Positions 25,769 to 58,016 of a stretch of DNA of 64,000 nt are shown here, in pieces (the first letter of the stretch is position 1; the number at the start of each line of letters is the position of its first letter). Source of the DNA: Flectonema sp. DT1601 (Eukaryota); the NCBI GenBank assembly GCA_964019425.1, contig OZ025786.1, forward strand, positions 124,001-188,000, given 5' to 3'. Under the pieces are notes generated by a model that did not search any database, had not been told where the DNA came from, and saw nothing but the letters and a program-made list of their open reading frames with translations. A program made the position numbers and the translations under genes.

Positions 25769-25789
25769 ACTGTAAAAATAAATAAAAAG

Positions 25790-26350
25790 ATTATAAAAAA
25801 AAAAAAAAGAATAAACAATGTTATCATTGTTTTTTTTTATCGATCGACTATGTCGATTACTTTCTATTTTCCGTCCCGATCGAGACGCTAAACTGATTGT
25901 TTCCTTTTTTTAAATAATAAATAAAAAAAAAAAAAAAAAAAAAAAAAGAGCATCTCCCTGCTATCCTCATATCCCCACAATAATATTATACCTTTTCATT
26001 TTCTCTTTCCTTTTCTGGTCTTTTTTTTTTTTTTTCTTTTTTTTCCTTTTTCATACAACGTTTTTTATTTATATTTTATTTTTTTTTTTATTTTTTTCAT
26101 GTTTGATTATTTCCTCTTCATATTTTTTTTTCTTTTCTTTCTTTTTTTTTTTTTTTTCTCTGCCTCTCTCTTAATTCTGTTCGTTTCTTTGAAACGAAAA
26201 TTCATTTGAATATTATTCCTTGGTCAGCAACAGTCATTGTCGCCCTCTGGGCCTGTTAAAAAAAAAAAAAAAAATAAAAAGAAAGTTTACATCGGGAATA
26301 GGGCAGGAGCCAAAAGCTCCCAGTCCGTTACTTCCCACTCTATCGAATTC
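25790..26350 (-). mobile_element. Satellite-head element plus one satellite unit, inverted
   Basis: Reverse complement of 51817-52300; ends sharply at ...CTATCGAATTC. Confidence 0.9.
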
Positions 26351-26646
26351 TTACAGGTTGTCTCATAGGTAAGTGGTAGATCAGAGTTGCCAAGCATCCT
26401 CCAGATATGGTTGTTGTCATATCCTCTCGCGTTGTGGAAGTAGAGAGGTACATCACCATACAGTTGCTTATCCCTGACGTTGATATTGCAACCACTACAT
26501 GAAGCACCTCTATACTTACCTGTTAGATGGCAGTGATCATGGACCTTTGCCTTGTCGCTACTAAAGGGTTCCTCGCAATAGCAACACCTTGTGGACAGTT
26601 CGTGTTCTCTAACCTGAGTATTTGTAATGATCATCTTGCTAACATC
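26351..26646 (-). pseudogene. Second pPolB fragment (HDHCH region)
   Basis: Near-identical to about 24960-25256. Confidence 0.9.
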
Positions 26647-26648
26647 GG

Positions 26649-27503
26649 AGTTGAATTTCCAGGTGAGATTTGGACTGTTAGCTTTTGGCTAAGGCCCTCC
26701 CTGAAGAGCAAGAACAAAAAAACTACTCACACCTGAAGAAAACATACACAAAGAACACACTGTAAGCTGTGTGTGTATTTTGTGTTTGTCAGAACAGGAG
26801 AGAAAAGAAAGAATGTCAAGGTTGGTCACCTTGCCTATCAACGCACAACATTGGTGGTCTCTACTAGACCCTGAGTGATCCCACTGGATCTCTCATCGTT
26901 CATAGTACCTATGTGAAGTTATAAAATCAAAGGTAAACTATGAACTACAAATGACTTAGCCTGTTATTATAATGCCACAGGCAGGCCCTGCATTCAGCAA
27001 CTATCCAGCAGTGCTTGGATGTCCTGATCTTCTTCTAAAAAAAAGAAAGAAAGAAAAACAAAACTGTAGCTGGGATCACTCAGGATCAACAGACTACCAA
27101 TGCTACCTGTTGTACTTGCTCACTATGGGGGGTGATGCCAAACACCCAGAAGTACTTAACTGCTTTCCTTCTTGCTGCCCAGGAGTTTCTGACCAGAACT
27201 AATAGAAAATAAAAAGTAGATGGGAAACAAAAAAAAGTAAAATGGATATAACTGAAGTTAAACAAGACAAATGAAGTAACAGACCAGAACAGTAATTGTA
27301 GTAAAAGATAACAAATAAACAAATGCAAGTATCAACACATGATTTAATTACACCAGCAGCTAACAAACAACATAAAATTGAAGATCAGTTGCCAGAGTAT
27401 TTCAACCATGGTAGAATACTCGCCCCTCTGGCAGGGATTATCCCAGACTTGTCCTTTAATTTAGTTGGACACCATGGCTTACAACCCTTCCAGAGGGAAG
27501 CAC
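26649..27503. mobile_element. Non-autonomous element of the GAGTTGAATT long-TIR family, truncated
   Basis: 26649-26849 matches 46087-46287; 26971-27503 matches the reverse complement of 47028-47578. Confidence 0.7.
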
Positions 27504-33302: not shown

Positions 33303-34829
33303 TTTTTTTTTTTTTTTTTTTTGGTTACACTCGTCTGTGCTTCCAGACTCTTTGTTTTTGTTCTTTTCACTTCTTTGTTTTGTCTTTCTTTTATACTTTC
33401 TTTTGATTTAAGTCTGACAAATTGGAAAACACGGGAAACGTAGGTAGGCTCCGCCTGAGGACGTAAGAAGAGCGGCAACGGAAAAATAAATGGTCACGCG
33501 TCCTTGAAATTGGACACATGAAGCTAATTCGGTTGCCATTCCTACCATCGATAAGGAAAACAAAGAATCGAGCATATAACTAGAGCGGTGGTCAAAGACC
33601 ACTTGAACAGCCCGAAGGCCTGCCCTCAAGAGAAATTTATAAGGAGAATAGGAGAAGAAGGAGACAGGAGTGTTGGAAGAGACACTGCGACAACACTGAA
33701 GGTGATGTGCAGTTACCCAACCAGGAGATGATTGATAATGATGAAAATACTAAAATAATAACAAATTGATATTGGCGACTACATGTCACCTACTTTACTT
33801 CCAAAGTCTAAGGTTAGATGTTTGTTCCATCCACCTTATGATCAACGCGAGTGATGGAAGCCACGCCAAAGTGAAGAGAGCTTCAAGGTTAGGAATTTCG
33901 TTGGCAATAATAAGTTCTCGATCGCGATCCCACTTGCCGGTCAGTGTTGAGAAGCCCAGGATTTTGAACCTGGCAGAGTCGAGTTTGGGAGATTGACATC
34001 CCTGCAGCAGGTGAACCTGTGAGGACGGTTCGCCACAAAATGGGCAGTCGATCGTCTTGCGCCAGTTCTGAATTAGCGGGTGACATCCTGTCCGGAAGTT
34101 CGCTATCCGTATCTCGTCGGCTCTTTCCATCCCAGGAGGGTATTTAACTGAACGGCCTCTGATGAGGTGTTTGTAGCAGGTGTAACCACTCACGTTAAGC
34201 AGATCCTTCTTGATGCAGCGCTTAACATGTGATGATCGCGAGAAGTACGTGCCTTTGACTAGCACAGGTCGGATGTTCTTGTTGTGCGCTGCTTCCTTTG
34301 CAAGCGCGTCAACTTCATCGTGAAACTCGATTCCAATGTGCGAGGGGATGAATTGCAAATGCACTTTCATCTCACACATGCGCAGGTATTCCAGTATCTT
34401 GAGGGACTCGGAATTCTTCTGTCTGCATCTTCCACCCAGCAGTTCATCCAGAAGGGATTTTGAGTCCGTGAATATCCTCACAGATCTCATTGAGGGATCT
34501 TTGCTAAACACTGTTCTCAGATGTCTAGCCGCGTTCTTCAGAGCATGTTGTTCAGCCCTGTAGCTGCAGTCAGCTTGATAAAGCCTAGACGCGTAAGCAG
34601 ATCGAAGGCCGCTACGTGACTTGGCAATATGAGCCGCACCGGCCGCGCCGGAAGCAGAGTAGGAGCCATCGCAGTTGATTACCATGTCGACAGGAGGTAA
34701 CGTTCCAATGTACGACATGAATTTTTCTTTGTCCACCGCAGGGTTCGCGGACTTCGGAAATCCGCAGCCGTTGCTAATCCTAAGGTTTGTCGGAGATACC
34801 CAGGGTTCCATCGAGTCAGGCTGTACGTA
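33303..34829 (-). mobile_element. 5'-truncated ingi/I-group-like LINE (RNase H + C-terminal zinc knuckle) with poly(A) tail
   Basis: ORF 33795-34811: CDGS, SYRAEQHAL, IFTDSKS, FIPSHIGI...VDALAK, FRTG...CPFC...HLLQGC; poly-T at 33303-33322. Confidence 0.88.
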
Positions 34830-36345
34830 GTTTTTTTTTAATTTTCTTTCCTATATTCTTATTGCAGGAATTATCCTTGCAAGGAATTTCTCCTCAAAAA
34901 TCGTTATTTCACAAGATTCTTCTCCCACAAAAATAATTCCTGATCAAGGAAAAATTTTTACTGGGGGTTTCCTTTGGTGATCTGGTAAGGAATTATTATT
35001 GTGAGGAATTTTTTTTTTGGAAATTTTTTTTTCAGCAAAAATTCTTGAGTTCCTCACAAGAATTTCGGCACGAGGTATTAAGTTGCTCGACCTTCGCTGT
35101 TTTTTTCGATACGTGATTAGTCCGTTAGAGGACTGTCGGTGTGAAAGGAAAGAAAGTCGGAACGGTGGCCAAAGATTAGTGAGTTGACTGAGTTGGTCAG
35201 TTACCAGCATGGTAGCTAGCGGTTTCCTTATGATGTTAAATATCGTTATGATGATATAGTTGTATTTTACAAATCAAACTCAAACGCCCCCCTTCCTGGT
35301 GTTCGTCTTGGTGATTAATTCACAGTTGAATAACTCGATTCCGTACTGCACTGAATGACAACACGGAAAAAAGAGATGTGTATGCAGCTGAGAGGAATCG
35401 TAACTTCAAGTGCTTTTGCATTCTGAAGATTGCAATGGATGATATTTAAATCTGTCAGTGAGTATCAATTGGTGGGTAGACCACCGAAGTTACTGTGAAC
35501 AAACCAGCGTGTCCAAAGCAGGCGTTCGTCTTGTATTTTACGTATAAAATCCAACAGTTAACCCCCTTCAAGTTTTCAAGACAATATAATTATTAATTAA
35601 ATACTCATGGGTTTTATAAAAAACTGTTGCGGTTACATAAGCAAGTGGTGCTCAACTATGTTCACGTGGTATTTATTTATCTGCAGTCATTTACTACGCT
35701 GCCGCTGACAGTCAAGATTGTCAGAGAAATACCTGGTCAATTTGACTTGACATCATTTTTTCTCGCAATTTTAAAATAAAAACTTTCTCCTTTCTTTAGG
35801 CTATTACTACAAACTTTATTTTCAATCTCTCAAGACAAAAGCTTATGTGGGAACAATTAGACAGGAGCATGATATCCAAAAGTTACATGTCTGAAATCAT
35901 GGAGAATACATTCTTTCGGAGTTGCTTTAACCAGTAGAATCAGATGCGTGGTCCGTTCCGGTAGGACTCCCTTCTTACGAATGTGTGGTGCCTCGTGTTA
36001 GCGCTTTGGATAGTAATAACCATTGGCGGCGACTATGCACGGGGTGGCCAGTGGGTTTAATGAGGTTGTTGTGTAATCCCCTTCCATGGCTCTGTTTCGG
36101 CATGCTGGAAAGCGAAGCTCTGAAGTTTACTTCAGGTTAGTCTTGTAAGCCTATCCTTCCGGTTCAGTTCTCGGCTTGGTTGATTCCCTCGATCGTCCCA
36201 TCCAGGAGTTTGTGTGCATGGTGAGGCCCTCTGGAAACCCAGCCCAGCACAAGACACCAGGCTCACGGCGAAGATTGGACCCGAAAGTAACCTTGCGTTC
36301 TGTTCTGTTGGCAAGCTCTCTGGCTGAGTGCGTTCGAAGTGAGTG

Positions 36346-36960: not shown

Positions 36961-37665
36961 GTTATAGCGTCAAAATAACACTCGCGTGGGTGGTTGCTCT
37001 CTTCGGAAAGCATAACTTCAGACCCGTCAATTCGCGGCGCTTATATCTACACACATTAATTAGTTGAACGAGTTCAAGTCACTTCCCTGCATAGCAGATC
37101 CGTGTCCTCTGTACTAACGCTATACTAAGTGTGACTGTGACTGATACACGTAATGGTTGGGTTCTTTAAGGAATAATCATCATCGTCCATATTGTGTAAT
37201 TAAGACTGAATAAACAAAGGGATAATAAAATTATAGTGAATCAATGAAATAAAACATAAACTACTGACGTCGGGGTAATGTTGCATCTTCAAGAGGTCAG
37301 AAACCCAAGACTTTGAAAAGCACCGAGGTAAGAGCGGTGCAACAAGCCAAAAACAACAGGTATACAATAAACGAACCTCAAGAAGAAACACCCAGGGTGG
37401 GATGGGTGGGAAATTCTTTTGTTTTAATATAAACAGAAAGAAGAGCAAAATTTGCTAAGGAAAGGAATTAAAATATAAGTTAAAAGTGTACCGATAAACT
37501 ATAACGTCTCAAACACAGCGCTAACCAGTGCAACGAGAGCTAATAAATTCGATAAGCCACTGCTGAACCAACATCTTAGGTGCAGAGTGCATTTTAGATA
37601 AGGAAGGACATTTTTCATTTTCCGTTCCGCTAGGACAGAAAAGTAATAAGTATAAATAAATTTTC

Positions 37666-38487
37666 TTTTTATTTATTTATTTATTTAGTCACATCCCCCC
37701 TGTCTTTCTACTTTGTTTTTATTCTTTCTGAGCATACTCGCTCTTCTTATTTTTTAACTAAGTAAATAAGCAACAACGAGTGCAACTGTTGTGAGTCCGT
37801 TGGAGGACTTCCCCGGATAGGAAGCTCACGACACTGTAAGTACAAAGCGAATGATCAATACGGAGACGGTGGCCAAAGACCACTGGGTTACCTGCGAGCT
37901 ATGAAGCTCTACGGATGTCCTCAGAGAGTTATTAGGAGATGAATTAGGAGTGATGTATGAGTATGATATACTAAAAAGATAGTAACTTCTGATAACAGCT
38001 TGTTGCCGTCCATTGTTCTAAATGCCATATGAAGCCAGCGAGGGAATGTAAGTTCCTCGTAGCGAACATAAATAGCAGGCTGTGTTCCTTCTTTGAAATC
38101 TTCGCTTCTTCCATGACAGATCCAATTGTTCCATTTCTGATGCGTACCAGAGCAGAGTTCATGCAGTTAAACATCAAGTGTCTAGGTGATGAGTCCGTCC
38201 GTTTACAAAAAGGGCACTTCAGTTGTACGCCTTTGTCTCTCAGCAAGGGGTGTGAACCCGTTCTGAATTGTGCAATTCTTACTTCCGAAGCCCTCAGCAT
38301 GTCTTTCGGATATCTAGCAGTTCTCAATCCTCCGGTCGCCTCCAGATACTGTCTGAGCATCACCCGTTTCATTGGAGGCTTTGCCTTCTCGGAGGCTTCC
38401 ATCATCTTTCCTATCAACTTCCTGTGAGACTCCCTCGCTACCCTTGATTTGTGGGCGAAGAAATCCATGGTCGTTGAGACCGGTTTA
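37666..38487 (-). mobile_element. Short 5'-truncated ingi-like LINE inserted into repeat A2
   Basis: ORF 37971-38468 (FRTGSHPLL...CPFC...HLMFNC); (TAAA)n/A tail; ~14-bp TSD ATAAATAAA(A)TTTTC. Confidence 0.88.
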
Positions 38488-38513
38488 ATAAATAAAATTT
38501 TCGACGTACCAGA

Positions 38514-38596
38514 GCCTGCATAGCCGAGTGGTTATGGTCGTCGACCTTAAATCGCTTACGTAGCCGTGGTCGGGGGTTCGATTCCTGGTCACGGCA
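38514..38596 (+). other. tRNA-like module (Leu/Ser type, long variable arm) in repeat A2
   Basis: A-box TAGCCGAGTGG, B-box GGTTCGATTCC, TTTTTT terminator; identical to 43316-43398. Confidence 0.72.
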
Positions 38597-38980
38597 GATT
38601 TTTTGGTATTTTTAACCAGAAAATTTTAAAGTAAAAACAAGTAAGAAAAAGAGCACAAAAGTGGACTTGGTGATCATTCCCTGAGTAAACTAAGAGAATA
38701 ATCATCATCGTCCATATTGTGTAATTAAGACTGAATAAACAAAGGGATAATAAAATTATAGTGAATCAATGAAATAAAACATAAACTACTGACGTCGGGG
38801 TAATGTTGCATCTTCAAGAGGTCAGAAACCCAAGACTTTGAAAAGCACCGAGGTAAGAGCGGTGCAACAAGCCAAAAACAACAGGTATACAATAAACGAA
38901 CCTCAAGAAGAAACACCCCAACGCCAGTCAAGAAATTGATAATAAAATATTAAAATTAAGAATATTAAAATTAAGTGTAC

Positions 38981-41818
38981 TTAAGTGCGGAAGAACAACC
39001 CCACCGCTTGTATGACTTGAGACCGGAGTTTTTCAGATGACAGCTGCCCATAGGAAGTCCTTGAAGGACCATCTGCAGGATTCAGAGCAGATCTAACATA
39101 TCTGATGTTGAAAACCAACTCTCTCATCGCAAGCCAATCAGAAACTGCGAGTACTAAGTCATTCAAGATTTTGTTTTTCTGACACTGTCTCTTTCTAACT
39201 GCCCCCATCACGGAAGTGTTGTCAACTCTTATATCCAACTGAAACCCTTGCAAATTCCAATCATTCAAAGCCAATAATGAGTTATGAAGAGCTTTCGCCT
39301 CAAGAATATTGATATGAAGACCTCTCTCTTTCCTCCATACATCGCCAACCACAGTCAACGCCCCTGATTGCTCAACAACTACACCTCCCCAACCTTCCAA
39401 AGAAGCGTCGACAAAGAGAGTCAAACACTTTGACACCGATAATTTTTTCTTAATAATCCTGATCCCTACTGCATCAGATAGCCAACGAGATAATTCCAAT
39501 CGAATAGAACGGGGAACAAGAACCGTCTCATCAAGACCAAGGAGACCTCGATTAATCTTGTTAATTACTCTTCTAATAAACTTCAGAGTAAACCAAAACC
39601 TACCAGGTGATATTCCAGAAACCGCCGATGCATGCATTAGCCTGCCCATCAACGACTCCAAACCACTGGCAGTAATCAAAGTCAAATCAACAGCAGCCAA
39701 TTTTCCTTGTAGTCTTTCAGACACTACAACAGATCTATCTTGGTGATTGAAACGCACACCTAAGAAATCATACTCTTCTGCCAAATTAAATGAATCTAAT
39801 TCCTTCCATGTTGATGAAGCCTTCTTTGCAATAAGATCGAGTTGAGCAGTTCTAATAGCTACATCCTTCCTCGAACCAGAATACCTGATGTTGTCGATCC
39901 AGGCATCGACTCTCACATCATGAACAGCTATGTCAGATCTAACATAGTCCGGATGACCCGCAATGGTAGCAGCCAATGTGTGCATAATTTCTGGTGCACA
40001 AGAATGACCCATTGGCAACCGAGTCAATTCGAAATACTGCCCATCGTCCGATCTAAAACCAAATAACTTGCGAGCATCATGAGGAATCTCGACCTGATAA
40101 AAACCAGTTCTGAAATCCCTTCCGCTTGCACAATCAAATAGAACTGAGTCGAGGTATTCTGAGATGTGTCCCAAGGGCACATCAGCAATGTAACCATCAT
40201 CAACCAGACGCTCGTTAGACTGCTTCGTCCAAAGAATAAACCTCTGACGTAATCCTGTTGCTTTCTGTTCAATTACAGTGAACGGAACATTTTCAACTAA
40301 ACCAGGCTTCGATGTCTTCTGTGCGATCCCATTCTCCACCAGTAAATCTGCATGAGTACGAGAAAATGAACTCTCCGGTCTAACCGTCTTTGAAAAATTC
40401 AGCACATGATCGAGTTCAGTATGGAAATCAAGTGTAGGAGCATGAGAAACAAGCGAATCAGTGGATCTGGTATTGTGGCAAACTTTATGTGGAAAAAATG
40501 TTAAATCCCATACAAACTCAAATCTTTTCAGTCGCTTTTGCGACATTCTTTCCTTTACAAACGAAATTAACATGGGTTCAATTTTGGTTACATGCAGGGG
40601 GGAATTCTTCTCCTCTAATGATCTTGGTAATACCGACCTCTTCGGTCGCCTACAAATATTGTGCTTTCTTACAACAATACTGTTATCTCGTCCGTCCTTA
40701 ACGCTCGAGCCATACACATCGGATCTCCTCCATACCGGATCGTCACCCCTGAGAACGGATCGTTCTTCGATGAATGCTTTAGTAGCCTTCCCATCACCAC
40801 CTCGTCGACCCTTCTTCCAGTTGACATGATACCCATGATATGAGAAATCGCGCCCCTCTTTATTGAATGCGCCGAATATTTTCCCATTACTGCATCCCTT
40901 CTCCACAACGCATCCAATCCCCTTGTTGAAACCTTTGTCAGACTTACAAAGTCCCCTAGAACCAGCAAACCCTGGGCTATCTCTGGAGTCAAAAAGCCTT
41001 TTATCACTACCCATCTCGATGGTTTGAAAGGATCTTCCCTCCGTCCCTTCGGAACATCCCACCAATCCACAATTATTTCCTCCACAGAAATGAAAACGAA
41101 ATTTCTTCTCCCCAGCTTCCATACCTCCCCCCATCTCGCCGCCGATTTCCATGCGATCAGTAAGCCCGTCTTCAGCTGAACATCTTGCTTCATTGCCCAC
41201 GCAATCAAAACAGAACGATTTATCGGTTCCGCCTGCTCCAACGGCACCGCAGCGCCGTCTGCCCTTAGCGCCGCCGCTAGCTGCTTCAATGTCTCGTTCT
41301 CCAATCCCATCCTCTTCAGCATGCCTGAGAACGCCTTTGCGTAGGCCAACATTCCTTGCTTCGATACCTTTGTCGCTGTCACAAACAACGCAACTGTATC
41401 CTGATTTACAGGGACATCGTTTCTCTCCACCCAAATTAGCAGACGGTCCCACAAGCATTGTCGACTTCTCATTGTGCTTTGCGCCCAGATCTTCCCGGCG
41501 ATTTGTTCCATCACCATTAACGAGTCGGTCAAATCCGACGTGTACTCTCTGTTCCGTACCCGCTGAATCTTCCTTACTTGATCCTCGATCTGGTTTTTCA
41601 TAAGGCTTCCAATCAATGTGGAAACCTCTGCTCCATCCGACTGCATGAGATTCTCCCTTATCTCCCAAATCCGTTCCGGAATAAGGGTCGACCCTTCTGA
41701 CACCGACTTTCCTAGGGAAACCTTTCCTGAACCTTTGATACCATGGAAATTCTGAAAACTTGCTGGACCAACGCGGACTAAACACCGCTTTACTTGCTCG
41801 GGGCTGGCCTCGGTTCAC
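38981..41818 (-). CDS. Pol frame: DIRS-type reverse transcriptase + RNase H, probably reached by -1 frameshift from gag
   Basis: RDFRTGFYQV, RLPMGHSCAP, WIDN, FLGV; RNase H FVDAS, HINILEA, VDNTSV, SALNPADGPSR; frame open from the end of gag. Confidence 0.92.
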   Translation of the reverse strand: MNRGQPRASKAVFSPRWSSKFSEFPWYQRFRKGFPRKVGVRRVDPYSGTDLGDKGESHAVGWSRGFHIDWKPYEKPDRGSSKEDSAGTEQRVHVGFDRLVNGDGTNRREDLGAKHNEKSTMLVGPSANLGGEKRCPCKSGYSCVVCDSDKGIEARNVGLRKGVLRHAEEDGIGERDIEAASGGAKGRRRCGAVGAGGTDKSFCFDCVGNEARCSAEDGLTDRMEIGGEMGGGMEAGEKKFRFHFCGGNNCGLVGCSEGTEGRSFQTIEMGSDKRLFDSRDSPGFAGSRGLCKSDKGFNKGIGCVVEKGCSNGKIFGAFNKEGRDFSYHGYHVNWKKGRRGGDGKATKAFIEERSVLRGDDPVWRRSDVYGSSVKDGRDNSIVVRKHNICRRPKRSVLPRSLEEKNSPLHVTKIEPMLISFVKERMSQKRLKRFEFVWDLTFFPHKVCHNTRSTDSLVSHAPTLDFHTELDHVLNFSKTVRPESSFSRTHADLLVENGIAQKTSKPGLVENVPFTVIEQKATGLRQRFILWTKQSNERLVDDGYIADVPLGHISEYLDSVLFDCASGRDFRTGFYQVEIPHDARKLFGFRSDDGQYFELTRLPMGHSCAPEIMHTLAATIAGHPDYVRSDIAVHDVRVDAWIDNIRYSGSRKDVAIRTAQLDLIAKKASSTWKELDSFNLAEEYDFLGVRFNHQDRSVVVSERLQGKLAAVDLTLITASGLESLMGRLMHASAVSGISPGRFWFTLKFIRRVINKINRGLLGLDETVLVPRSIRLELSRWLSDAVGIRIIKKKLSVSKCLTLFVDASLEGWGGVVVEQSGALTVVGDVWRKERGLHINILEAKALHNSLLALNDWNLQGFQLDIRVDNTSVMGAVRKRQCQKNKILNDLVLAVSDWLAMRELVFNIRYVRSALNPADGPSRTSYGQLSSEKLRSQVIQAVGLFFRT
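40669..41703 (-). CDS. Tyrosine recombinase
   Basis: WKSAARWGE (R), PKG (K), HSIKRG, LLKH and RY catalytic-type motifs; same frame as gag, nested inside the pol frame. Confidence 0.9.
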   Translation of the reverse strand: MSEGSTLIPERIWEIRENLMQSDGAEVSTLIGSLMKNQIEDQVRKIQRVRNREYTSDLTDSLMVMEQIAGKIWAQSTMRSRQCLWDRLLIWVERNDVPVNQDTVALFVTATKVSKQGMLAYAKAFSGMLKRMGLENETLKQLAAALRADGAAVPLEQAEPINRSVLIAWAMKQDVQLKTGLLIAWKSAARWGEVWKLGRRNFVFISVEEIIVDWWDVPKGRREDPFKPSRWVVIKGFLTPEIAQGLLVLGDFVSLTKVSTRGLDALWRRDAVMGKYSAHSIKRGAISHIMGIMSTGRRVDEVVMGRLLKHSSKNDPFSGVTIRYGGDPMCMARALRTDEITVLL

Positions 41819-43053
41819 TTTTGACCTTTGCCAGCCCCCCCAACGTTTCCCGAAAATCCCTTTGAATAACTGCTCTTAAATTTATTCTGCGGATTCCAAC
41901 TTCCTCTCCCCTTATCCCCTTTCCCATTCCACTCGTTCTTCAGCTTTTTCTCTGCATCTAACTCGGCTAGCTTCACTGCTTTATCAAACGTCTTTCCAGA
42001 CTTCACCAAGCGCTCGATATCATCTGAGCTTATTCTCTTAGTGGTATACTGCCACTTCATGATCAAGTTCTCTAGCGACTTGTTCATGCTCCTGACAAGG
42101 GGCTTTGAAGTGACCCAGTCTATAGTTGATACGCTCATGGCTTTGATGTTGTCTCGCACTACTTCAAATGCTCCCCTTAACTCTCTCAGTTCACGGGTTG
42201 CTACTTTGCCACTATGTGGTAACCAATATTTATTCTCCAACTTATCGAGTAATCTTTCCGCCCCTCCTTGTATCAGTATATTGCGCCACTGCAACACATT
42301 CGTTGCTTCTGACGCCAGCTCAAATTCGATGCAATCCACATTTTCCGGTGACAATTGGCATTTTACGCCGCCCTTGTTTTTTAACAATTCGTTTGTTTGT
42401 TGTATCTGCAACTGACATAATTGTTGATTTTGCGATAATAGTGCCATCATTTGTTGCATCATACTACTCTCTTGTTGTATTTGTGGCTGGGGTTGCGCAC
42501 CATGCATCTGTGGCTGGGGTTGCGCACCATGCATCTGTGGCGATAACAATGACGCCACCTGCGATTCCAAATTAGTTACCTTTTGGCACATGCCTAACAT
42601 CTTTTGTTCATTTTCTAGAACTAACCTTTTGGACCACTCATCCCAATACACATCCTTGCTTATCACATGGGCATATTCAAAGCCCGCATGTGGAAAGTCG
42701 AATGTTTCGTCCGGCCCCGTGTGTCGATACACACCCCTTAAAAGACTTGTCGAATTTGACAAGGTTACCCTCCCCATATTACCCACCATTGACAATAAGC
42801 CACAATACCAATTCCAACTTAATTCCCCTTCCTTCCTCATACAATATACTGCTTCTCTTCCAATCAAGGCCAACGAATTGTTCTTCATCATTTCTTCGGA
42901 CATTTTGGATTGGGGATCCCAAAACGTCCCTGCTTCCCCGATGGTGGCACGTGGTGATTGTGCTCTCACCGTCCTCAAATCCTCAAACAGAATTGAATCT
43001 AAATCCATCTCAGATTCTACATGCGGAATTTCCACAATTGGTGGTGTAGACAT
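41815..43053 (-). CDS. Gag-like ORF1 of the YR retrotransposon
   Basis: 412-aa ATG ORF directly after repeat A1; coiled-coil/Q-rich with a basic Gly-rich C-terminus; assigned by position. Confidence 0.8.
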   Translation of the reverse strand: MSTPPIVEIPHVESEMDLDSILFEDLRTVRAQSPRATIGEAGTFWDPQSKMSEEMMKNNSLALIGREAVYCMRKEGELSWNWYCGLLSMVGNMGRVTLSNSTSLLRGVYRHTGPDETFDFPHAGFEYAHVISKDVYWDEWSKRLVLENEQKMLGMCQKVTNLESQVASLLSPQMHGAQPQPQMHGAQPQPQIQQESSMMQQMMALLSQNQQLCQLQIQQTNELLKNKGGVKCQLSPENVDCIEFELASEATNVLQWRNILIQGGAERLLDKLENKYWLPHSGKVATRELRELRGAFEVVRDNIKAMSVSTIDWVTSKPLVRSMNKSLENLIMKWQYTTKRISSDDIERLVKSGKTFDKAVKLAELDAEKKLKNEWNGKGDKGRGSWNPQNKFKSSYSKGFSGNVGGAGKGQK

Positions 43054-43315
43054 TCTTTTGTTTTAATATAAACAGAAAGAAGAGCAAAATTTGCTAAGGA
43101 AAGGAATTAAAATATAAGTTAAAAGTGTACCGATAAACTATAACGTCTCAAACACAGCGCTAACCAGTGCAACGAGAGCTAATAAATTCGATAAGCCACT
43201 GCTGAACCAACATCTTAGGTGCAGAGTGCATTTTAGATAAGGAAGGACATTTTTCATTTTCCGTTCCGCTAGGACAGAAAAGTAATAAGTATAAATAAAT
43301 TTTCGACGTACCAGA

Positions 43316-43398
43316 GCCTGCATAGCCGAGTGGTTATGGTCGTCGACCTTAAATCGCTTACGTAGCCGTGGTCGGGGGTTCGATTCCTGGTCACGGCA
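43316..43398 (+). other. tRNA-like module in repeat A1, divergent from gag
   Basis: A-box TAGCCGAGTGG, B-box GGTTCGATTCC, T6 terminator; 5' end about 260 bp from the gag ATG, opposite strand. Confidence 0.72.
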
Positions 43399-44295
43399 GA
43401 TTTTTTGGTATTTTTAACCAGAAAATTTTAAAGTAAAAACAAGTAAGAAAAAGAGCACAAAAGTGGACTACGGAAATTAAAGGGCATTAAAAGCCCTTTA
43501 ATTTCCCCTTTATTTTGCCCCCTTTAAAGGGGTACAAGTATGAATTTTGAAAAAAAAACAATCAGTTTAGCGTCTTGACCAGGACGGAAAATAGAAAGTA
43601 ATCGACATAGTCGATCGATAAAAAAACAATGATAACATTGTTTATTCTTTTTTTTTTTTTTTTTTTTTTTAATCCTTCTTATTATTTTAAAGAAAAAACA
43701 ATCAGTTTAGCGTCTTGACCAGGACGGAAAATAGAAAGTGATCGACATAGTCGATCGATAAAAAAAACAATGATAACATTGTTTATTCTTTTTTTTTTTT
43801 TTTTTTCGGGAAGATAAAATGGAAACTACTTTCTTTGTCCTTTCTCATTTTACAACAAATTTGTAAAATCTTTCTACTGACTCTGATCGTTGTCTCGACA
43901 TACAGCGACAGGGAAAACCCGCGAGCTGGGGACGACAGTCTTCTTTAGCATTTAAGCATTTTTCGACTTGAAAAGACATGACCCTTCAATTTAATGAGTT
44001 CTCATGTTTCTGGGTTTGGGATGGGGAATGTGCACTTCTTCTCTTGATCCTTTGTTCTCATGGACCTTTTTTTTAAATTCTTTTTATTTATTTTTTAAAG
44101 AAAAAAAAAACGGAAAATAAAAATTAGTTATTATGACTTCTATTTTTTTTCTTCAAGAAAATCATAAGGTGGGAACAAAGAAAAATGCTAAGAGGAACCC
44201 CTTATTAACACCTAAGACATCTAAACTGCAGCCCAGCTTATGCCCAATGCACTAACAGGTCATTCCCTCACACTCAGATCAAAAAATCAAGTAAA

Positions 44296-44420: not shown

Positions 44421-45076
44421 TAGGTAGGATAAGAGATTTGGGAGAGGAATAGGGGCAGTGAACTTTTGGTTCAGGCCCTTCCCATCGAACAGGACGAGGA
44501 CTTCTAAAACCTGAGATGAACCAATTGAGTTGAAACAAACAAATAACAGAGACGCAACACATACCGGAACATCATCGCAAGCAATGCTTCGGACCTCCGT
44601 CGACCTTCGTTCTTCCGGCGGCAAAGGGAAACAAGAAAGAACGGGCAATGAGACAAACCTGTTAGTTGGTGTTGTGTTGTTGTTAAAAACAAAAACATAA
44701 ACGCCAGGAAGTTCGACAACGAAGACATCGACATCGATCGCTGCTCTGCAGATGTCCGGCGGGTGTTTGTCTACACTGTGTTTATTGTTTGTTTTTTTCC
44801 CAAGGTTCAACCTTGGGAAGAGAAGTAAAAAATTCCGTCAATGTTGGCCTTCCTGTTCGAAGGTGCGCACCAATGACGATAAATAGAGTGGGGGGAGAAA
44901 ACCTCTGATCCAACTGGATCCCTTCACGAGCTGACATTGCCATGTGAAGTTAAATATTCTGGCGATGCCGGCTCAGGCGACTTAGCCTGCTTTTTTCTTT
45001 AAATAAAAAAAATAAAAAGATACCAACAGGTGGGGTGATGGGTTGCACCACTGCAATCCAGTCACAAAAAGAAACA

Positions 45077-45391
45077 ATCAGTTTCATATTTCCAGTTCAG
45101 CTCTGGAGAGACATCGAGATGGATTCTGTATGAAGATGCTAGGTGACGTCCTCCCACAATCATGCTTTCAAAGTCTGCGATCATCACGAAGGGTTTCTTC
45201 ACGGTGTTGTTGTAGTTTGTGAACTTGATTTTGCTACCCTCCTTTGGCATGGTTACACGGGATGCCTCATTGTTCTTGCAATTGTTAAAGTGTTCTAACA
45301 TGGTTGTATCTTTCTTGAACGAGTGCAGGCATCTGGGGCAGTGGGAACCATGTTTTGAATCGCTACCCATGAGACGGCCAAGTGACTTGAT
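45077..45391 (-). pseudogene. pPolB N-terminal fragment
   Basis: Near-identical to about 25395-25708 (CPRCLHSF...IADFES). Confidence 0.9.
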
Positions 45392-46085
45392 CCTTGAGGG
45401 ACCCCCTTCGTACAGGATCTGGATCCACTATCTAATCCCAGAGACAGACTCACATTTCTATCTGAAAGATAGTTCGCAAGCCATTTAACATACGGAACCG
45501 GCAGGACAGCTACCAATCTATCAACGAGTATTTGATGATCCACGTTATCGAATGCCCCAGAGATATCAAAGAGGATGATCGCTCCATAACCATCATAGAG
45601 TTTCTGCACACCGGAAGCCGCATCCACCAATAGCGAGATGTTCTCTTCTACATTCCTGCCCGGCGTAAAACCAGACTGCCTAGGGTCCAACTTCCCCTCC
45701 AACAAATGTTCACATCGATTACCCACAAGCGACTCCAAGCACTTCGAAACAATTGACGTCAAAGAGATTGGTCTGTAAGAAGACGGAAGAAGCGAGTCAC
45801 GATCCCCTCCCTTCGGAATTATTATCACCTTGGCCTTTTTCATGCAAGAGGGAAAGATACCCCTCCTGAAAGATAGCGAGGCGAGTCTAAGCAATAGTAG
45901 GAACATACGGGGACCCAAGTTAAGCAGCATATTATTAGAAACAGAATCTAAACCAGACCCGTGGGAGGGAGTCAATGACTTCAGTACCGTGCATAACTCA
46001 TGAATCGAAAAAGAACCACAGCTTGAGTCATCATAATCAGCAGGCTTCGAATCAGGAACTAATAACGGTGAGGATTTTGAATCAC
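45392..46085 (-). pseudogene. Non-LTR retrotransposon RT fragment (domains 0-4)
   Basis: GLDSV, IPKG...SYRPISLTSIVSKCLE, QSGF, FDISGAFDNVDH, GVPQGS; abuts the pPolB fragment. Confidence 0.9.
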
Positions 46086-47969: not shown

Positions 47970-48007
<38 letters not shown>

Positions 48008-48010
48008 TAT
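47582..48010 (+). mobile_element. Satellite-head element
   Basis: GAATTTCGATAAAGTGGGAAG start, leads directly into the array. Confidence 0.9.
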
Positions 48011-48820
48011 TTAAAAAAAGGAAACAATCAGTTTAGCGTCTCGATCAGGACGGAAAATAGAAATTAATCGACATAGTCGATCGATAGAAAAAAAAAACAA
48101 TGATAACATTGTTTATTCTTTTTTTTTTTTTTTTTTTTTTTTAAATCCTTTTAATTATTTTAAAGAAAAAACAATCAGTTTAGCGTCCTGACCAGGACGG
48201 AAAATTGAAAGTGATCGACATAGTCGATCGATAAAAAAACAATGATAACATTGTTTATTCTTTTTTTTTTTTTTTTTTTTAACCTTTTAATTATTTTTTA
48301 AAGAAAAAACAATCAGTTTAGCGTCTTGACCAGGACGGAAAATAGAAAGTGATCGACATAGTCGATCGATAAAAAACAATGATAACATTGTTTATTCTTT
48401 TTTTTTTTTTTTTTTTTTTTTTAATCCTTTTTATTATTTTAAAGAAAAAACAATCAGTTTAGCGTCTTGACCAGGACGGAAAATAGAAAGTGATCGACAT
48501 AGTCGATCGATAAAAAAACAATGATAACATTGTTTATTCTTTTTTTTTTTTTTTTTTTTTTTAAATCCTTCTTATTATTTTTTAAAGAAAAAACAATCAG
48601 TTTAGCGTCTTGACCAGGACGGAAAATAGAAAGTAATCGACATAGTCGATCGATAAAATAAAAACAATGATAACATTGTTTATTCCCTTTTTTTTTTTTT
48701 TTTTATTCTTTTTATTTATTTTTAAAGAAAAAAACAATCAGTTTAGCGTCTTGACCAGGACGGGAAATAGAAAGTGATCGACATAGTCGATCGATAAAAA
48801 AACAATGATAACATTGTTCA

Positions 48821-48851
<31 letters not shown>

Positions 48852-49245
48852 TTCTTTTTATTTATTTTTTAAAGAAAAAACAATCAGTTTAGCGTCTTGA
48901 CCAGGACAGAAAATAGAAATTAGTCGACAAAGTCGATCGATAACAAAACAATGATAACATTGTTTATTCTTTTTTTTTTTTTTTTTTTTTTATTCTTTTT
49001 ATTTATTTTTTAAAGAAAAAACAATCAGTTTAGCGTCTTGACCAGGACGGAAAATAGAAAGTGATCGACATAGTCGATCGATAAAAAACAATGATAACAT
49101 TGTTTATTCTTTTTTTTTTTTTTTTTTTTTAATCCTTTTTATTATTTTAAAGAAAAACAATCAGTTTAGCGTCTTGACCAGGACGGAAAATAGAAAGTGA
49201 TCGACATAGTCGATCGATAAAAAAACAATGATAACATTGTTTATT

Positions 49246-49279
<34 letters not shown>

Positions 49280-51122
49280 CTTTTTATTATTTTTAAAGAA
49301 AAAACAATCAGTTTAGCGTCTTGACCAGGACGGAAAATAGAAAGTAATCGACATAGTCGATCGATAAAATAAAAACAATGATAACATTGTTTATTCCTTT
49401 TTTTTTTTTTTTTTAATTCTTTTTATTTATTTTTAAAGAAAAAAACAATCAGTTTAGCGTCCTGACCAGGACGGGAAATAGAAAGTGATCGACATAGTCG
49501 ATCGATAAAAAAACAATGATAACATTGTTTATTCTTTTTTTTTTTTTTTTTTTTTTTTATTCTTTTTATTTATTTTTTAAAGAAAAAACAATCAGTTTAG
49601 CGTCTTGACCAGGACAGAAAATAGAAATTAGTCGACAAAGTCGATCGATAACAAAACAATGATAACATTGTTTATTCTTTTTTTTTTTTTTTTTTTTTTA
49701 TTCTTTTTATTTATTTTTTAACGAAAAAACAATCAGTTTAGCGTCCTGACCAGGACGGAAAATAGAAAGTAATCGACATAGTCGATCGATAAAAAAAAAC
49801 AATGATAACATTGTTTAATCTTTTTTTTTTTTTTTTTTTTTTATTCTTTTTATTTATTTAGAAAAAACAATCAGTTTAGCGTCTTGACCAGGACGGAAAA
49901 TAGAAATTCGTCGACAAAGTCGATCGATAAAAAAACAATGATAACATTGTTTATTCTTTTTTTTTTTTTTTTTTTTTAAATTCTTTTTATTTATTTTTTA
50001 AAGAAAAAAAACGGAAAATAGAAATTAGTCGACAAAGTCGAACGATAAAAAAACAATGATAACATTGTTTAATCTTTTTTTTTTAAATTCTTTTTATTTA
50101 TTTTTTAAAGAAAAAAAAACGGAAAATAGAAATTAGTCGACAAAGTCGAACGATAAAAAAACAATGATAACATTGTTTATTCTTTTTTTTTTATTTTTTT
50201 TATATTTTTTTTTAATTAATTTTGAAAAAAAAAACAATCAGTTTAGCGTCTTGACCAGGACGGAAAATAGAAAGCGATCGACATAGTCGATCGATAAGAA
50301 AACAATGATAACATTGTTTATTCTTTTTTTTAATTTTAAATTCTTTTTATTTATTTTTTAAAGAAAAAAAACGGAAAATAGAAATTAGTCGACAAAGTCG
50401 AACGATAAAAAAAAACAATGATAACATTGTTTATTCTTTTTTTTGTATTTTTTTTATATTCTTTTTTATTAATTTTGAAAAAAAAAAAAACAATCAGTTT
50501 AGCGTCTTGACCAGGACGGAAAATAGAAAGTGATCGACATAGTCGATCGATAAAAAAACAATGATAATATTGTTTATTCTTTTTTTTTTTTTTTTTTTTT
50601 AAATTCTTTTTATTTATTTTTTAAAGAAAAAAATGGAAAATAGAAAATAGTCAACAAAGTCGAACGATAAAAAAAAACAATGATAACATTGTTTATTCTA
50701 TTTTTTTATTTTTTTTTTTTTTCTATTCTTTTTTATTAATTTTGAAAAAAAAAAAACAATCAGTTTAGCGTCTTGACCAGGACGGAAAATAGAAAGTAAT
50801 CGACATAGTCGATCGATAAAAAAAAACAATGATAACATTGTTTATTCTTTTTTTTTTTTTTTTTAAATTCTTTTTATTTATTTTTTAAAAAGAAAAAAAA
50901 CGGAAAATAGAAATTAGTCAACAAAGTCGAACGATAAAAAAAAAAACAATGATAACATTGTTTATTCTTTTTTTTTTATTTTTTTTATATTCTTTTTTAT
51001 TAATTTTGAAAAAAAAACAATCAGTTTAGCGTCTTGACCAGGACGGAAAATAGAAAGTGATCGACATAGTCGATCGATAAAAAAACAATGATAACATTGT
51101 TTATTCTTTTTTTTTATTTTAA
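48011..51122 (+). repeat. Satellite array of ~100-125-bp units
   Basis: AACAATCAGTTTAGCGTCTTGACCAGGACGGAAAATAGAAAGTGATCGACATAGTCGATCGATAAAAAAACAATGATAACATTGTTTATTC(T)n. Confidence 0.97.
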
Positions 51123-51816
51123 CATAGATGGAAGTGCCCTCCAAATTTGGAGGGCGCCTGGTGAAAATCAGCCACAAAAATTTGTAGGGCCAAAATAGGG
51201 CCATTGTAGGGCCAAAATAGGGCCAAAATAGGGCGCTGGAGGGCGCGTAGGGCGCTTTTTTAATTAAATTTAATATAATGCCGAGCTCATTTTGACACAC
51301 CCCTGCCCTCAGCGACGGTCGAATCGCATCTTATTTGACTTTTCTCCGGTTCGCCCGATCAAATGCGTCTCTGGGATATCAGTTTACTTGCCACCAGTAA
51401 ACTTCTTTTTTTTCTCACAAGGTACCGTGAAGACCGGCCTATTAACAGGTTAGTAAGAACGCACTCTCCCTCCTCGAATCCCTCTATATTCGACTCGGTG
51501 CATTCTGCGGGCTAATCAGCTCCTTGTAGATCTGGGATGCATCGTCCACTGAAATGAGTTTCAGCTTCAGGGATTGTAGCAGGCTCCGGAAGCTCTCAAG
51601 GAGTAGCCCATTGTTTTTGCCATTGTTGACCTCCGAACCATGACCTGGAGGTCTCGGGTTCGAACCCCGTGACACCCTTTTTTCTCTTTTTCGAAAGACT
51701 GCCAAGCATGTCAAAATTTTTTTTTGGCTTCTGCGTCAAAATACTTGTGCGTCAGTGTAAGTCGACGTCAATTTAGCTGTCTTATAGTAATAAAAAAGGT
51801 AAAAAAAAGCGCCCTC

Positions 51817-52008
51817 GAATTCGATAGAGTGGGAAGTAACGGACTGGGAGCTTTTGGCTCCTGCCCTATTCCCGAAGTAAACTTTCTTTTTATTTTTTTT
51901 TTTTTTTTAACAGGCCCAGAGGGCGACAATGACTGTTGCTGACCAAGGAATAATATTCAAATGAATTTTCGTTTCAAAGAAACGAACAGAATTAAGAGAG
52001 AGGCAGAG

Positions 52009-52039
<31 letters not shown>

Positions 52040-52163
52040 AAAAAAAATATGAAGAGGAAATAATCAAACATGAAAAAAAAAAAAAAAAAAAAAAGACCAG
52101 AAAAGGAAAGAGAAAATGAAAAGGTATAATATTATTGTGGGGATATGAGGATAGCAGGGAGAT

Positions 52164-52199
<36 letters not shown>

Positions 52200-55100
52200 T
52201 TATTATTTAAAAAAAGGAAACAATCAGTTTAGCGTCTCGATCGGGACGGAAAATAGAAATTAATCGACATAGTCGATCGATAGAAAACAAAACAATGATA
52301 ACATTGTTTATTCATTTTTTTTTTTTTTTTTTTTTTTAAATCCTTTTAATTATTTTAAAGAAAAAACAATCAGTTTAGCGTCTTGACCAGGACGGAAAAT
52401 AGAAAGTGATCGACATAGTCGATCGATAAAAAAACAATGATAACATTGTTTATTCTTTTTTTTTTTTTTTTTTTAAATTCTTATTATTTATTTTTTAAAG
52501 AAAAAAAACGGAAAATAAAAATTAGTCGACAAAGTCGAACGATAAAAAAAAAAAAAACAATGATAACATTGTTTATTCTTTTTTTTTTTTTTTTTTTTTT
52601 TTATATTCTTTTTTATTAATTTTGAAAAAAAAAACAATCAGTTTAGCGTCTTGACCAGGACGGAAAATAGAAAGTAATCGACATAGTCGATCGATAAAAA
52701 AACAATGATAACATTGTTTAATCTTTTTTTTTAATTTTTTTTTATTTATTTTTTAAAGAAAAAAAAAACGGAAAATAGAAATTAGTCGACAAAGTCGAAC
52801 GATAAAAAAACAATGATAACATTGTTTATTCTTTTTTTTTTATTTTTTTTATATTTTTTTTTTTAATTAATTTTGAAAAAAAAAACAATCAGTTTAGCGT
52901 CTTGACCAGGACGGAAAATAGAAAGCGATCGACATAGTCGATCGATAAGAAAACAATGATAACATTGTTTATTCTTTTTATTATTTTAAATTCTTTTTAT
53001 TTATTTTTTAAAGAAAAAAAAAACGGAAAATAGAAATTAGTCGACAAAGTCGAACGATAAAAAAAAACAATGATAACATTGTTTATTCTTTTTTTTGTAT
53101 TTTTTTTATATTCTTTTTTATTAATTTTGAGAAAAAAAAAAAACAATCAGTTTAGCGTCTTGACCAGGACGGAAAATAGAAAGTGATCGACATAGTCGAT
53201 CGATAAAAAAAAAAAAAAAACAATGATAATATTGTTTATTCTTTTTTTTTTTTTTTTTTTTAAATTCTTTTTATTTATTTTTAAAGAAAAAAAATGGAAA
53301 ATAGAAAATAGTCAACAAAGTCGAACGATAAAAAAAAACAATGATAACATTGTTTATTCTATTTTTTTATTTTTTTTTTTTTTTTCTATTCTTTTTTATT
53401 AATTTTGAAAAAAAAAAAAACAATCAGTTTAGCGTCTTGACCAGGACGGAAAATAGAAAGTAATCGACATAGTCGATCGATAAAAAAAACAATGATAACA
53501 TTGTTTATTCTTTTTTTTTTTTTTTTAAATTCTTTTTATTTATTTTTTAAAAAGAAAAAAAACGGAAAATAGAAATTAGTCAACAAAGTCGAACGATAAA
53601 AAAAAAAACAATGATAACATTGTTTATTCTTTTTTTTTTTTTTATTTTTTTATATTCTTTTTTATTAATTTTGAAAAAAAAAAAACAATCAGTTTAGCGT
53701 CTTGACCAGGACGGAAAATAGAAAGTGATCGACATAGTCGATCGATAAAAAAAACAATGATAACATTGTTTATTCTTTTTTTTTTTATTTTTAAAGAAAA
53801 AAAACGGAAAATAGAAATTAGTCGACAAAGTCGAACGATAAAAAAAACAATGATAACATTGTTTATTCTTTTTTTTATTTTTTTTTTTATATTCTTTTTT
53901 ATTAATTTTGAAAAAAAAAACAATCAGTTTAGCGTCTTGACCAGGACGGAAAATAGAAAGTGATCGACATAGTCGATCGATAAAAAAAACAATGATAACA
54001 TTGTTTATTCTTTTTTTTATTTTTTTTTTTATATTCTTTTTTATTAATTTTGAAAAAAAAAACAATCAGTTTAGCGTCTTGACCAGGACGGAAAATAGAA
54101 AGTAATCGACATAGTCGATCGATAAAAAAAACAATGATAACATTGTTTATTCTTTTTTTTTATTTTAAATTCTTTTTATTTATTTTTTAAAGAAAAGAAA
54201 CGGAAAATAGAAATTAGTCGACAAAGTCGAACGATAAAAAAACAATGATAACATTGTTTATTCTTTTTTTTTAATTTTTTTTATATTTTTTTTTTTAATT
54301 AATTTTGAAAAAAAAACAATCAGTTTAGCGTCTTGACCAGGACGGAAAATAGAAAGTGATCGACATAGTCGATCGATAAAAAAACAATGATAACATTGTT
54401 TATTCTTTTTTTTTATTTTAAATTCTTTTTATTTATTTTTTAAAGAAAAGAAACGGAAAATAGAAATTAGTCGACAAAGTCGAACGATAAAAAAACAATG
54501 ATAACATTGTTTATTCTTTTTTTTTTTTTTTTTTATTTCTTTTTATTTATTAAAAAAAAAAACAATCAGTTTAGCGTCTTGACCAGGACGGAAAATAGAA
54601 AGTGATCGACATAGTCGATCGATAAAAAAACAATGATAACATTGTTTATTCTTTTTTTTTTTTTTTTTAAATTCTTTTTATTTATTTTTTAAAGAAAAGA
54701 AACGGAAAATAGAAATTAGTCGACAAAGTCGAACGATAAAAAAACAATGATAACATTGTTTATTCTTTTTTTTTAATTTTTTTATATTCTTTTTTATTAA
54801 TTTCGAAAAAAAAACAATCAGTTTAGCGTCTTGACCAGGACGGAAAATAGAAAGTGATCGACATAGTCGATCGATAAAAAAACAATGATAACATTGTTTA
54901 TTCTTTTTTTTTATTTTAAATTCTTTTTATTTATTTTTTAAAGAAAAGAAACGGAAAATAGATATTAGTCGACAAAGTCGAACGATAAAAAAACAATGAT
55001 AACATTGTTTATTCTTTTTTTTTAATTTTTTTTTTTATATTCTTTTTTATTAATTTCGAAAAAAAACAATCAGTTTAGCGTCTTGACCAGGACGGAAAAT

Positions 55101-56646
55101 AGAAAGTGATCGACATAGTCGATCGATAAAAAAACAATGATAACATTGTTTATTCTTTTTTTTTATTTTAAATTCTTTTTATTTATTTTTTAAAGAAAAG
55201 AAACGGAAAATAGAAATTAGTCGACAAAGTCGAACGATAAAAAAAACAATGATAACATTGTTTATTCTTTTTTTTTATTTTAAATTCTTTTTATTTATTT
55301 TTTAAAGAAAAGAAACGGAAAATAGAAATTAGTCGACAAAGTCGAACGATAAAAAAACAATGATAACATTGTTTATTCTTTTTTTTTTTTTTTTTATTTC
55401 TTTTTATTTATTAAAAAAAAAACAATCAGTTTAGCGTCTTGACCAGGACGGAAAATAGAAAGTGATCGACATAGTCGATCGATAAAAAAACAATGATAAC
55501 ATTGTTTATTCTTTTTTTTTTTTTTTTTAAATTCTTTTTATTTATTTTTTAAAGAAAAGAAACGGAAAATAGAAATTAGTCGACAAAGTCGAACGATAAA
55601 AAAACAATGATAACATTGTTTATTCTTTTTTTTTAATTTTTTTTTTTATATTCTTTTTTATTAATTTCGAAAAAAAACAATCAGTTTAGCGTCTTGACCA
55701 GGACGGAAAATAGAAAGTGATCGACATAGTCGATCGATAAAAAAACAATGATAACATTGTTTATTCTTTTTTTTTATTTTAAATTCTTTTTATTTATTTT
55801 TTAAAGAAAAGAAACGGAAAATAGAAATTAGTCGACAAAGTCGAACGATAAAAAAAACAATGATAACATTGTTTATTCTTTTTTTTTATTTTAAATTCTT
55901 TTTATTTATTTTTTAAAGAAAAGAAACGGAAAATAGAAATTAGTCGACAAAGTCGAACGATAAAAAAACAATGATAACATTGTTTATTCTTTTTTTTTAT
56001 TTTAAATTCTTTTTATTTATTTTTTAAAGAAAAAAAAAACGGAAAATAGAAATTAGTCGACAAAGTCGAACGATAAAAAAAACAATGATAACATTGTTTA
56101 TTCTTTTTTTTTATTTTATTTTTATATTCTTTTTTATTAATTTTGAAAAAAAAAAACAATCAGTTTAGCGTCTTGACCAGGACGATAAATAGAAAGTAAT
56201 CGACATAGTCGATCGATAAAAAAAACAATGATAACATTGTTTATTCTTTTTTTTTATTTTAAATTCTTTTTATTTATTTTTTAAAGAAAAGAAACGGAAA
56301 ATAGAAATTAGTCGACAAAGTCGAACGATAAAAAAACAATGATAACATTGTTTATTCTTTTTTTTTTTTTTTTTTTTATTTCTTTTTATTTATTAAAAAA
56401 AAAAACAATCAGTTTAGCGTCTTGACCAGGACGGAAAATAGAAAGTGATCGACATAGTCGATCGATAAAAAAAACAATGATAACATTGTTTATTCTTTTT
56501 TTTTATTTTAAATTCTTTTTATTTATTTTTTAAAGAAAAAAACTGAAAATAGAAATTAGTCGACAAAGTCGAACGATAAAAAAAACAATGATAACATTGT
56601 TTATTCTTTTTTTTTTTATTTTAAATTCTTTTTATTTATTTTTTTA
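51817..56646 (+). repeat. Satellite-head element plus ~4.4-kb satellite array of alternating long and short units
   Basis: Head 51817-52210; long unit with GATCGACATAGTCGATC, short unit with AGTCGACAAAGTCGAAC. Confidence 0.95.
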
Positions 56647-57971: not shown

Positions 57972-58016
57972 TAATAAACTAAATAAACAAAGTGATGTGA
58001 AAGTAAGGAAAAAGAT

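Follow-up and report, generated by a model that had tools for sequence, protein, structure and literature searches.

Kinetoplastid VIPER elements are tyrosine-recombinase (YR) retrotransposons whose plan, in the available text of PMC6681497 and PMC12278014, comprises gag-like, YR and reverse transcriptase/RNase H (RT/RH) open reading frames (ORFs) together with split direct repeats. The available portions of these two papers and of PMC5146736 describe three ORFs with alternative starts and propose neither frameshifting nor readthrough. DIRS1-like and Ngaro elements are likewise YR retrotransposons with overlapping ORFs, in frames that differ from those described below (PMC3266345, PMC3783388 and PMC7192593, as far as their available text goes). 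Here, an intact VIPER-type element with split direct repeats was analyzed, which lies on the minus strand of a 64,000-nt stretch of contig OZ025786.1 (Flectonema sp. DT1601, assembly GCA_964019425.1, positions 124,001 to 188,000), referred to as the window. The end of its gag-like ORF carries a -1 frameshift signal, which very probably gives rise to a Gag-RT/RH fusion, and a UGA codon behind which the YR continues in the gag frame and which may be read through.

Retroviral and long terminal repeat gag-pol junctions resemble this site in having a heptamer, a spacer and a structure, in making the enzymes as minor Gag fusions and in placing a leaky stop between gag and enzyme. In the -1 shifts of HIV and HTLV, the UAG readthrough of MuLV and the UGA of Candida Tca2, a junction carries a single type of recoding, or two that act serially. 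In Dictyostelium Skipper a UGA is followed by a frameshift, again in series, and PRRSV nsp2TF/nsp2N are made so that three products arise from one slip site. In contrast to gag-pol systems, the two signals in the window, 27 nt apart from heptamer to UGA, would branch into two overlapping enzyme frames. The features concerned are the following.

41815..43053, minus strand: gag-like ORF of 412 aa with a UGA stop (labeled by position, as in PMC6681497)
41845..41851, minus strand: slippery heptamer G_GGA_AAC in the gag frame, conserved in the family
41839..41844, minus strand: 6-nt spacer
41800..41838, minus strand: hairpin with a perfect 9-bp stem (41838-41830 with 41808-41800) and a 21-nt loop holding the gag UGA; predicted frameshift stimulator
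41815..41817, minus strand: gag UGA in the context AAG UGA ACC; predicted readthrough or reinitiation point
41773..41788, minus strand: small second hairpin with a 4-bp GC stem, marking the end of the sequence island that is conserved with the sister family
40669..41814, minus strand: YR frame, identical to that of gag, 381 codons long, codon 57 being the first AUG (from ORF and predicted fold)
38981..41875, minus strand: RT/RH frame, -1 to gag, 964 codons from stop to stop, spanning all of the YR

Heptamer (41851-41845), spacer, stem and the position of the UGA (41817-41815) in the loop had been reported in a first-pass annotation of the sequence, and all of these coordinates hold. This annotation had also assigned RT/RH to the -1 frame, which is correct, and had let the frame open at the heptamer; in fact it is open from 41875 to 38981, i.e. 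already from 24 nt before the heptamer. The gag frame does run past the UGA, which lies nine codons after the slip site, into the YR, although not over the 37 codons given before: it stays open over 381 codons, of which codon 57 is the first AUG, and homology to YRs starts at about codon 71-87. When the 60 nt downstream of the slip site were folded and compared with 200 shuffled sequences, a stability of -26.8 kcal/mol was obtained (z -3.9), which none of the 200 shuffles reached, and a 91-nt fold of the junction gave a z-score of -2.56. The earlier description of heptamer, spacer and stem as a canonical signal for programmed -1 frameshifting is borne out by an in-frame X_XXY_YYZ heptamer, a spacer within 5-9 nt, a stable 3' structure, an open -1 frame and conservation in relatives. 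A pseudoknot or alternative stem 3' of the UGA was also considered; it was non-significant, and the sister family has not retained the pairing partner.

This sister family was identified in contigs from a single sample (two runs), in which the sister family is present and the window copy itself is not. Its match to the window is confined to 41772-41863, where 11 of 92 nt differ, and on either side the two sequences are divergent. Three of the 11 differences were identified by position, the heptamer letters not being among those read: the UGA is spared, one G-C pair of the stem is changed to G-U, and the base preceding the stop is altered, which results in an AUG overlapping the stop in the -1 frame. 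The RT-frame proteins P0049, P0080 and P0083 begin with M-N-R at the junction, and a UGA should therefore be present in the gag frame of those copies. P0090, from a third family, reads G-K-R..G-W..V-K-G-S-R-P, which, judged from the protein, would be the -1 reading expected from heptamer, stem and UGA.

Among 80 metagenome loci surveyed, a VIPER/TATE-type gag end could be scored in 11 loci from 9 families (L011, L018 and L056 were unscorable, short or partial loci were left unscored, the remainder differed in gene order, and 25 junctions were inspected). In 8 of the 9 families a strict heptamer was present in the gag frame and within the -1-open overlap (L002, L003/4, L008, L009, L010, L012, L021 and L040/41), six times as G_GGA_AAC and once each as A_AAA_AAC and C_CCA_AAU. 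For the seven families on which the statistic is based (L008 and L009 were left out), strict in-frame heptamers occurred in 6/7 of the relatives' short overlaps versus 3 of 3469 upstream gag codons (P ~2e-9 if independent, a condition that such P values overstate because the relatives share ancestry). The RT cores of the metagenome families are 25-30% identical to that of the window and sit on long branches across the VIPER-like clade of an RT tree that was calculated with FastTree only and does not include T. cruzi VIPER. A hairpin after the slip site with z < -1.8 was obtained in 5 of 8 folded junctions. Besides the shared ancestry, two observations weigh against a family-wide signal: L006 contains a loose heptamer and no strict one, and a significant hairpin was absent in L002, L006 and L012.

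All 10 published complete VIPER copies, as far as the sources were available (one from B. saltans, three from C. fasciculata and six from T. cruzi, judged by eye), have a heptamer followed by an in-frame UGA. In T. cruzi VIPER the spacer is likewise 6 nt long, and the stem, of 10 bp, starts with the same seven bases as that of the window, shows compensatory changes relative to it (by eye) and holds the UGA in its loop. In the searched part of the PMC6681497 supplement at least 14 T. cruzi-type junctions have UGA, and none of the CGA, UGG or UAA variants searched for was found. The first AUG of the RT frame ranges from codon 1 to 586 among relatives. According to the available text of PMC5009743, G_GGA_AAC and A_AAA_AAC are among the eukaryotic sites most prone to shift. 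As heptamer and hairpin are conserved among elements whose RTs are about 30% identical, a -1 frameshift is strongly supported, and on this sequence evidence it very probably makes Gag-RT/RH. The combination that had been singled out in the window, i.e. heptamer, stem and a single in-frame stop before the YR, recurs in other families, T. cruzi VIPER included.

In the mechanism that we propose, translation of a single spliced-leader (SL)-capped mRNA would start at the gag AUG. With ribosomes at the hairpin and G_GGA_AAC in their decoding sites, a fraction would slip by -1 and produce Gag-RT/RH (1357 aa). The remainder would unwind the stem, and at the UGA most of them would release Gag (412 aa) and a few would insert a residue and proceed to Gag-X-YR (794 aa). 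In this way both enzymes would come from one mRNA, each fused to Gag and in a low, fixed ratio, and the YR/RT overlap would be long because both enzyme frames must begin at the gag end. We give this three-way split between termination at the UGA, -1 shift and readthrough to the YR somewhat better than even chances. The idea that three proteins arise from one site, put forward in the first-pass annotation, is thus well founded for Gag-RT/RH and moderately likely for the YR, whose UGA lies in a non-textbook context.

The readthrough step draws on the stop codon and on the frame behind it. In the 10 VIPER/TATE-type junctions counted, the gag stop is UGA in nine and never UAA; the tenth is UAG GGA (L009), a type III readthrough context according to the motifs in the available text of PMC3159437, where types I-III are UAG-CAR-YYA, UGA-CUA/CGG and UAG-G. 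UGA makes up 9/10 of these gag ends, as compared to 6/20 of the ends of YR and RT in the same elements (Fisher p 0.005) and to 1/8 of those of gag in Ngaro-order loci (p 0.003), in which a stop closes the gag frame again within 2-28 codons. The YR follows in frame after the stop in 8 of 9 families, L008 having a later indel, and the linkers from the stop to the YR domain are open over 77-306 codons in 7/7 tested elements (joint shuffle P 2e-4). The position of the YR AUG varies from codon 1 to 78, and in L021 this AUG lies within an N-terminal helix that is predicted with modest confidence. One conserved stop of a leaky type separates two in-frame coding regions, as is general for programmed readthrough. 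Neither a sense codon in place of the UGA, nor stops in the linkers, nor a pyrimidine-rich acceptor before the YR AUG was found, any of which the first-pass annotation had regarded as fatal to its proposal.

Several observations speak against readthrough. The +4 base is A, and not the leaky C, in 8/9 UGA junctions. Of the 10 junctions L009 is the only one that fits types I-III, UGA ACC of the window lying outside them. No significant structure was found 3' of the stop in 70-nt folds of 8 junctions (z -0.5 to +1.4; window -0.11), and since +4 is A and nothing folds 3' of the stop, the site does not belong to the canonical readthrough classes. In yeast UGA-A favours Trp-tRNA, yet the leaky context is UGA-C (available text of PMC4748822). 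Openness of the gag frame up to the first AUG alone is non-significant (P 0.55 for the window, 0.71 for L002 and 0.68 for L021), and the codon-57 AUG of the window lies upstream of the entire YR as it is predicted to fold. In the TATE-like L040/41, heptamer and UGA-A are retained even though the gag frame is closed 53 codons further on; UGA-A can therefore persist without a YR behind it. Moreover, a 0-frame stop within a frameshift structure is common in viruses. Longer YR-containing proteins were not found in a weak search, which is evidence neither way, and a viral contig scan returned nothing.

UGA-AUG is present above chance in T. cruzi, L003/4, L006, L008 and L010, which also weighs against readthrough and makes termination followed by reinitiation a real rival. 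The -1 shift would then still produce Gag-RT/RH, and the YR would be made free, by reinitiation at the codon next to the UGA or at a nearby AUG. The five families with UGA-AUG come from at least three separate parts of the tree or dataset, a near-cognate AUC or ACG follows the UGA in L012, L021, L040 and one C. fasciculata copy, and the sequence 3' of the stop is A/C-rich and unstructured; AUG-independent reinitiation is known from L1 ORF2. However, reinitiation leaves the avoidance of UAA (0/10 junctions) unexplained, UGA ACC of the window, the sister family and one C. fasciculata copy is two mismatches away from AUG, and TATE appears to produce its YR as a fusion. We therefore regard reinitiation as a serious but rather unlikely source of the YR. 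Less probable still is that, next to the same frameshift, the YR is translated from a separate SL trans-spliced (or cis-spliced) mRNA, starting at its own AUG at codon 57 or 72. The host is likely a diplonemid-like euglenozoan, as the first named match both for relatives of the element and for the neighbouring phosphatase is Diplonema papillatum (42% for the neighbouring gene), and nearly all Diplonema mRNAs bear the SL (available text of PMC10161547). An AUG precedes the YR core motif in every element examined, UUUUCAG is present in the linker of the window, and L040, whose gag frame closes, must express its YR apart from gag. On the other hand, the linker has no pyrimidine tract (15/25 pyrimidines before the YR AUG of the window versus 21/25 directly 5' of the gag AUG), the AUG that follows UUUUCAG is out of frame and this motif is not part of the sister-family island, and a separate mRNA would leave the UGA, the exact abutment of the YR frame on the stop and the long open linkers unexplained. 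That the UGA is a nonsense mutation, an assembly error or a reassigned codon in a fused Gag-YR gene, or that the motifs arose by chance, would be in keeping with the single copy of the element catalogued in the window. This explanation is effectively refuted: the UGA is kept in the sister family, implied by the M-N-R starts of the three proteins and present in 10/10 published copies, and the heptamer enrichment given above speaks against chance. Wholesale reassignment of UGA was rejected, a metacaspase-like ORF of the host ending in UGA at the expected C-terminus.

Readthrough into the YR can further be compared with TATE, the sister YR family represented by L. braziliensis TATE and L040/41, in which X_XXY_YYZ heptamers were seen by eye both where gag ends and ahead of the overlap of YR and RT. 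In the available part of the PMC6681497 supplement, L. braziliensis TATE appears by eye to use two successive -1 shifts, first into a protease-YR ORF and then into RT, with no stop before the YR; in the TATE-like L040 the YR is nested with a start of its own. Two B. saltans TATE copies have been reported with a single ORF. The apparent L. braziliensis fusion and these single-ORF copies indicate that the YR tolerates fusion. The TATE-type second ORF contains an Ulp1/C48-like protease region (PF02902, E 2e-5, L040:1101-2600), with similar motifs in L. braziliensis TATE by eye; such a protease is not named in the available TATE section of PMC6681497.

Ngaro-order loci have U_UUA_AAC as the candidate entry to the RT, and the YR downstream. 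In 7 of 8 Ngaro-order junctions (L033, L037, L052, L054, L057, L065 and L075; L031 is without) the gag frame carries U_UUA_AAC 75-189 nt ahead of its stop and RT lies at -1, suggesting that -1 frameshifting likely operates in Ngaro too. In DIRS-order loci, RT is at +1 and the YR lies in frame behind a stop in leaky context. There, an ORF of about 990 codons is in frame behind the gag stop, with weak C-terminal integrase matches in 5/7 ORFs scanned. A gag stop followed by a long in-frame ORF was found in L025/26, L035, L042, L047, L048, L053, L063, L069, L022, L024, L034 and L038. The stop contexts in these DIRS/PAT-like loci are UGA CAA CCA (three times, in L042, L047 and L048, matching readthrough motifs in the available text of PMC3159437), UGA CAA UCC, UGA CUA, UGA CGG (2), UGA CUC, UGA GGA (2), UAG GGA and UAG GAA, and DIRS/PAT-like elements are accordingly listed here as candidates for gag-stop readthrough. 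It is nearly an even bet, with the odds slightly against, that VIPER elements share a branch point of about 50 nt with -1 shift and UGA-A readthrough, the potentially active T. cruzi element included, and that VIPER, TATE, Ngaro and DIRS all recode RT and YR at the gag end, which would account for their long ORF overlaps.

No suggestion that VIPER, TATE, Ngaro or DIRS might use frameshifting or readthrough was found in the available text of the literature searched, which included PMC6681497, PMC12278014, PMC5146736, PMC7192593, PMC3266345, PMC3783388 and PMC5009743; older reviews and Repbase notes beyond the reach of the search may mention it. Likewise, the available portions of these papers do not address how the long overlapping YR and RT genes of DIRS-order elements are translated. 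Each signal is of a known kind; their combination, across a whole retrotransposon family, at a single point where translation would branch into two overlapping enzyme frames appears undescribed. The junction offers a precise, family-wide and testable answer to how the overlapping YR and RT are expressed, with UGA-AUG, UGA-ACC, UAG-GGA and the stop-less TATE as natural variants that provide built-in controls. If the reading with readthrough is true, the annotated protein starts of VIPER would have to be revised to Gag fusions instead of AUG-started ORF2 and ORF3, and the site would be a branching two-signal recoding site that supplies native frameshift and readthrough cassettes from euglenozoans. 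To our knowledge, few such cassettes have been described from this group.

The assignment of the element to VIPER is based on the order gag-like, YR, RT/RH, on the RT/RH frame overlapping the YR, on the repeats and on the YR catalytic residues, all of which are found in the window. Kinetoplastid VIPER has the same gene order, an RT/RH of about 950 codons over the YR, the arrangement A1-ORFs-B1-A2-B2 and, in published sequences, the same junction signals. The window copy differs in belonging to a clade with Diplonema proteins, in a Gag without CCHC box and in an insert in A2. Its RT is placed among kinetoplastid VIPER-like RTs, together with Diplonema proteins in a 97% group that includes Angomonas deanei P0069, apart from DIRS and Ngaro; it is 33% identical to an A. 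deanei relative. In TATE a protease-like region precedes the YR in a long second ORF; no such region is present in the YR frame of the window, which has 381 codons. In the RT/RH frame the first AUG is codon 140 and the RT core starts at about residue 410; the family of this ORF matches solved RT/RNase H structures by profile. The YR has its catalytic positions at R227, K256, HSIKRG 316-321, H347 and Y361, and its predicted fold is Cre/Xer-like (pLDDT 82; Foldseek E 6e-6, Cre first). Pfam gave no match for the gag-like ORF and missed both the YR and the RT/RH protein of the window, and the YR alignment retrieved nothing from a PDB sequence search. Self-BLAST revealed the repeat order A1-ORFs-B1-A2-B2 with >99% identity and A2 interrupted.

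43049..43469, minus strand: split direct repeat A1, 5' end of the element, finishing at the gag AUG
38691..38918, minus strand: repeat B1, 99.6% identical to B2
37410..38667, minus strand: repeat A2, split by an insert of about 820 bp
37167..37393, minus strand: repeat B2, 3' end of the element

The insert within A2 (about 37666-38487, minus strand) has a target-site-like duplication of about 14 nt and an A-rich tail, and the end of its ORF resembles that of an RNase H ORF at 33795-34850, so that it is likely a 5'-truncated non-LTR retroposon. A tRNA-Leu(UAA)-like segment lies within repeat A, antisense to the element (about 43316-43400, plus strand, with a copy at about 38513-38597). It contains A- and B-box-like motifs by eye and may represent the head of a SINE or a divergent promoter for Pol III; neither ARAGORN nor Rfam called it, and scans with both gave nothing else of relevance.

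Elsewhere in the window, an RT-like ORF with a YIDD motif is broken by one in-frame UAA (18034-20577, minus strand) and is likely a decayed retroelement. Broken ORFs resembling family-B DNA polymerase, with repeated fragments, are located at 22937-26688 and 45062-45427 (minus strand) and possibly belong to a Polinton-like element, a label given by eye. Long AT-rich arrays of units of about 140 and 250 nt and two tandem arrays, one of 35 nt and one of 10 nt, occupy 47970-62000, 1896-2595 and 14608-14747.

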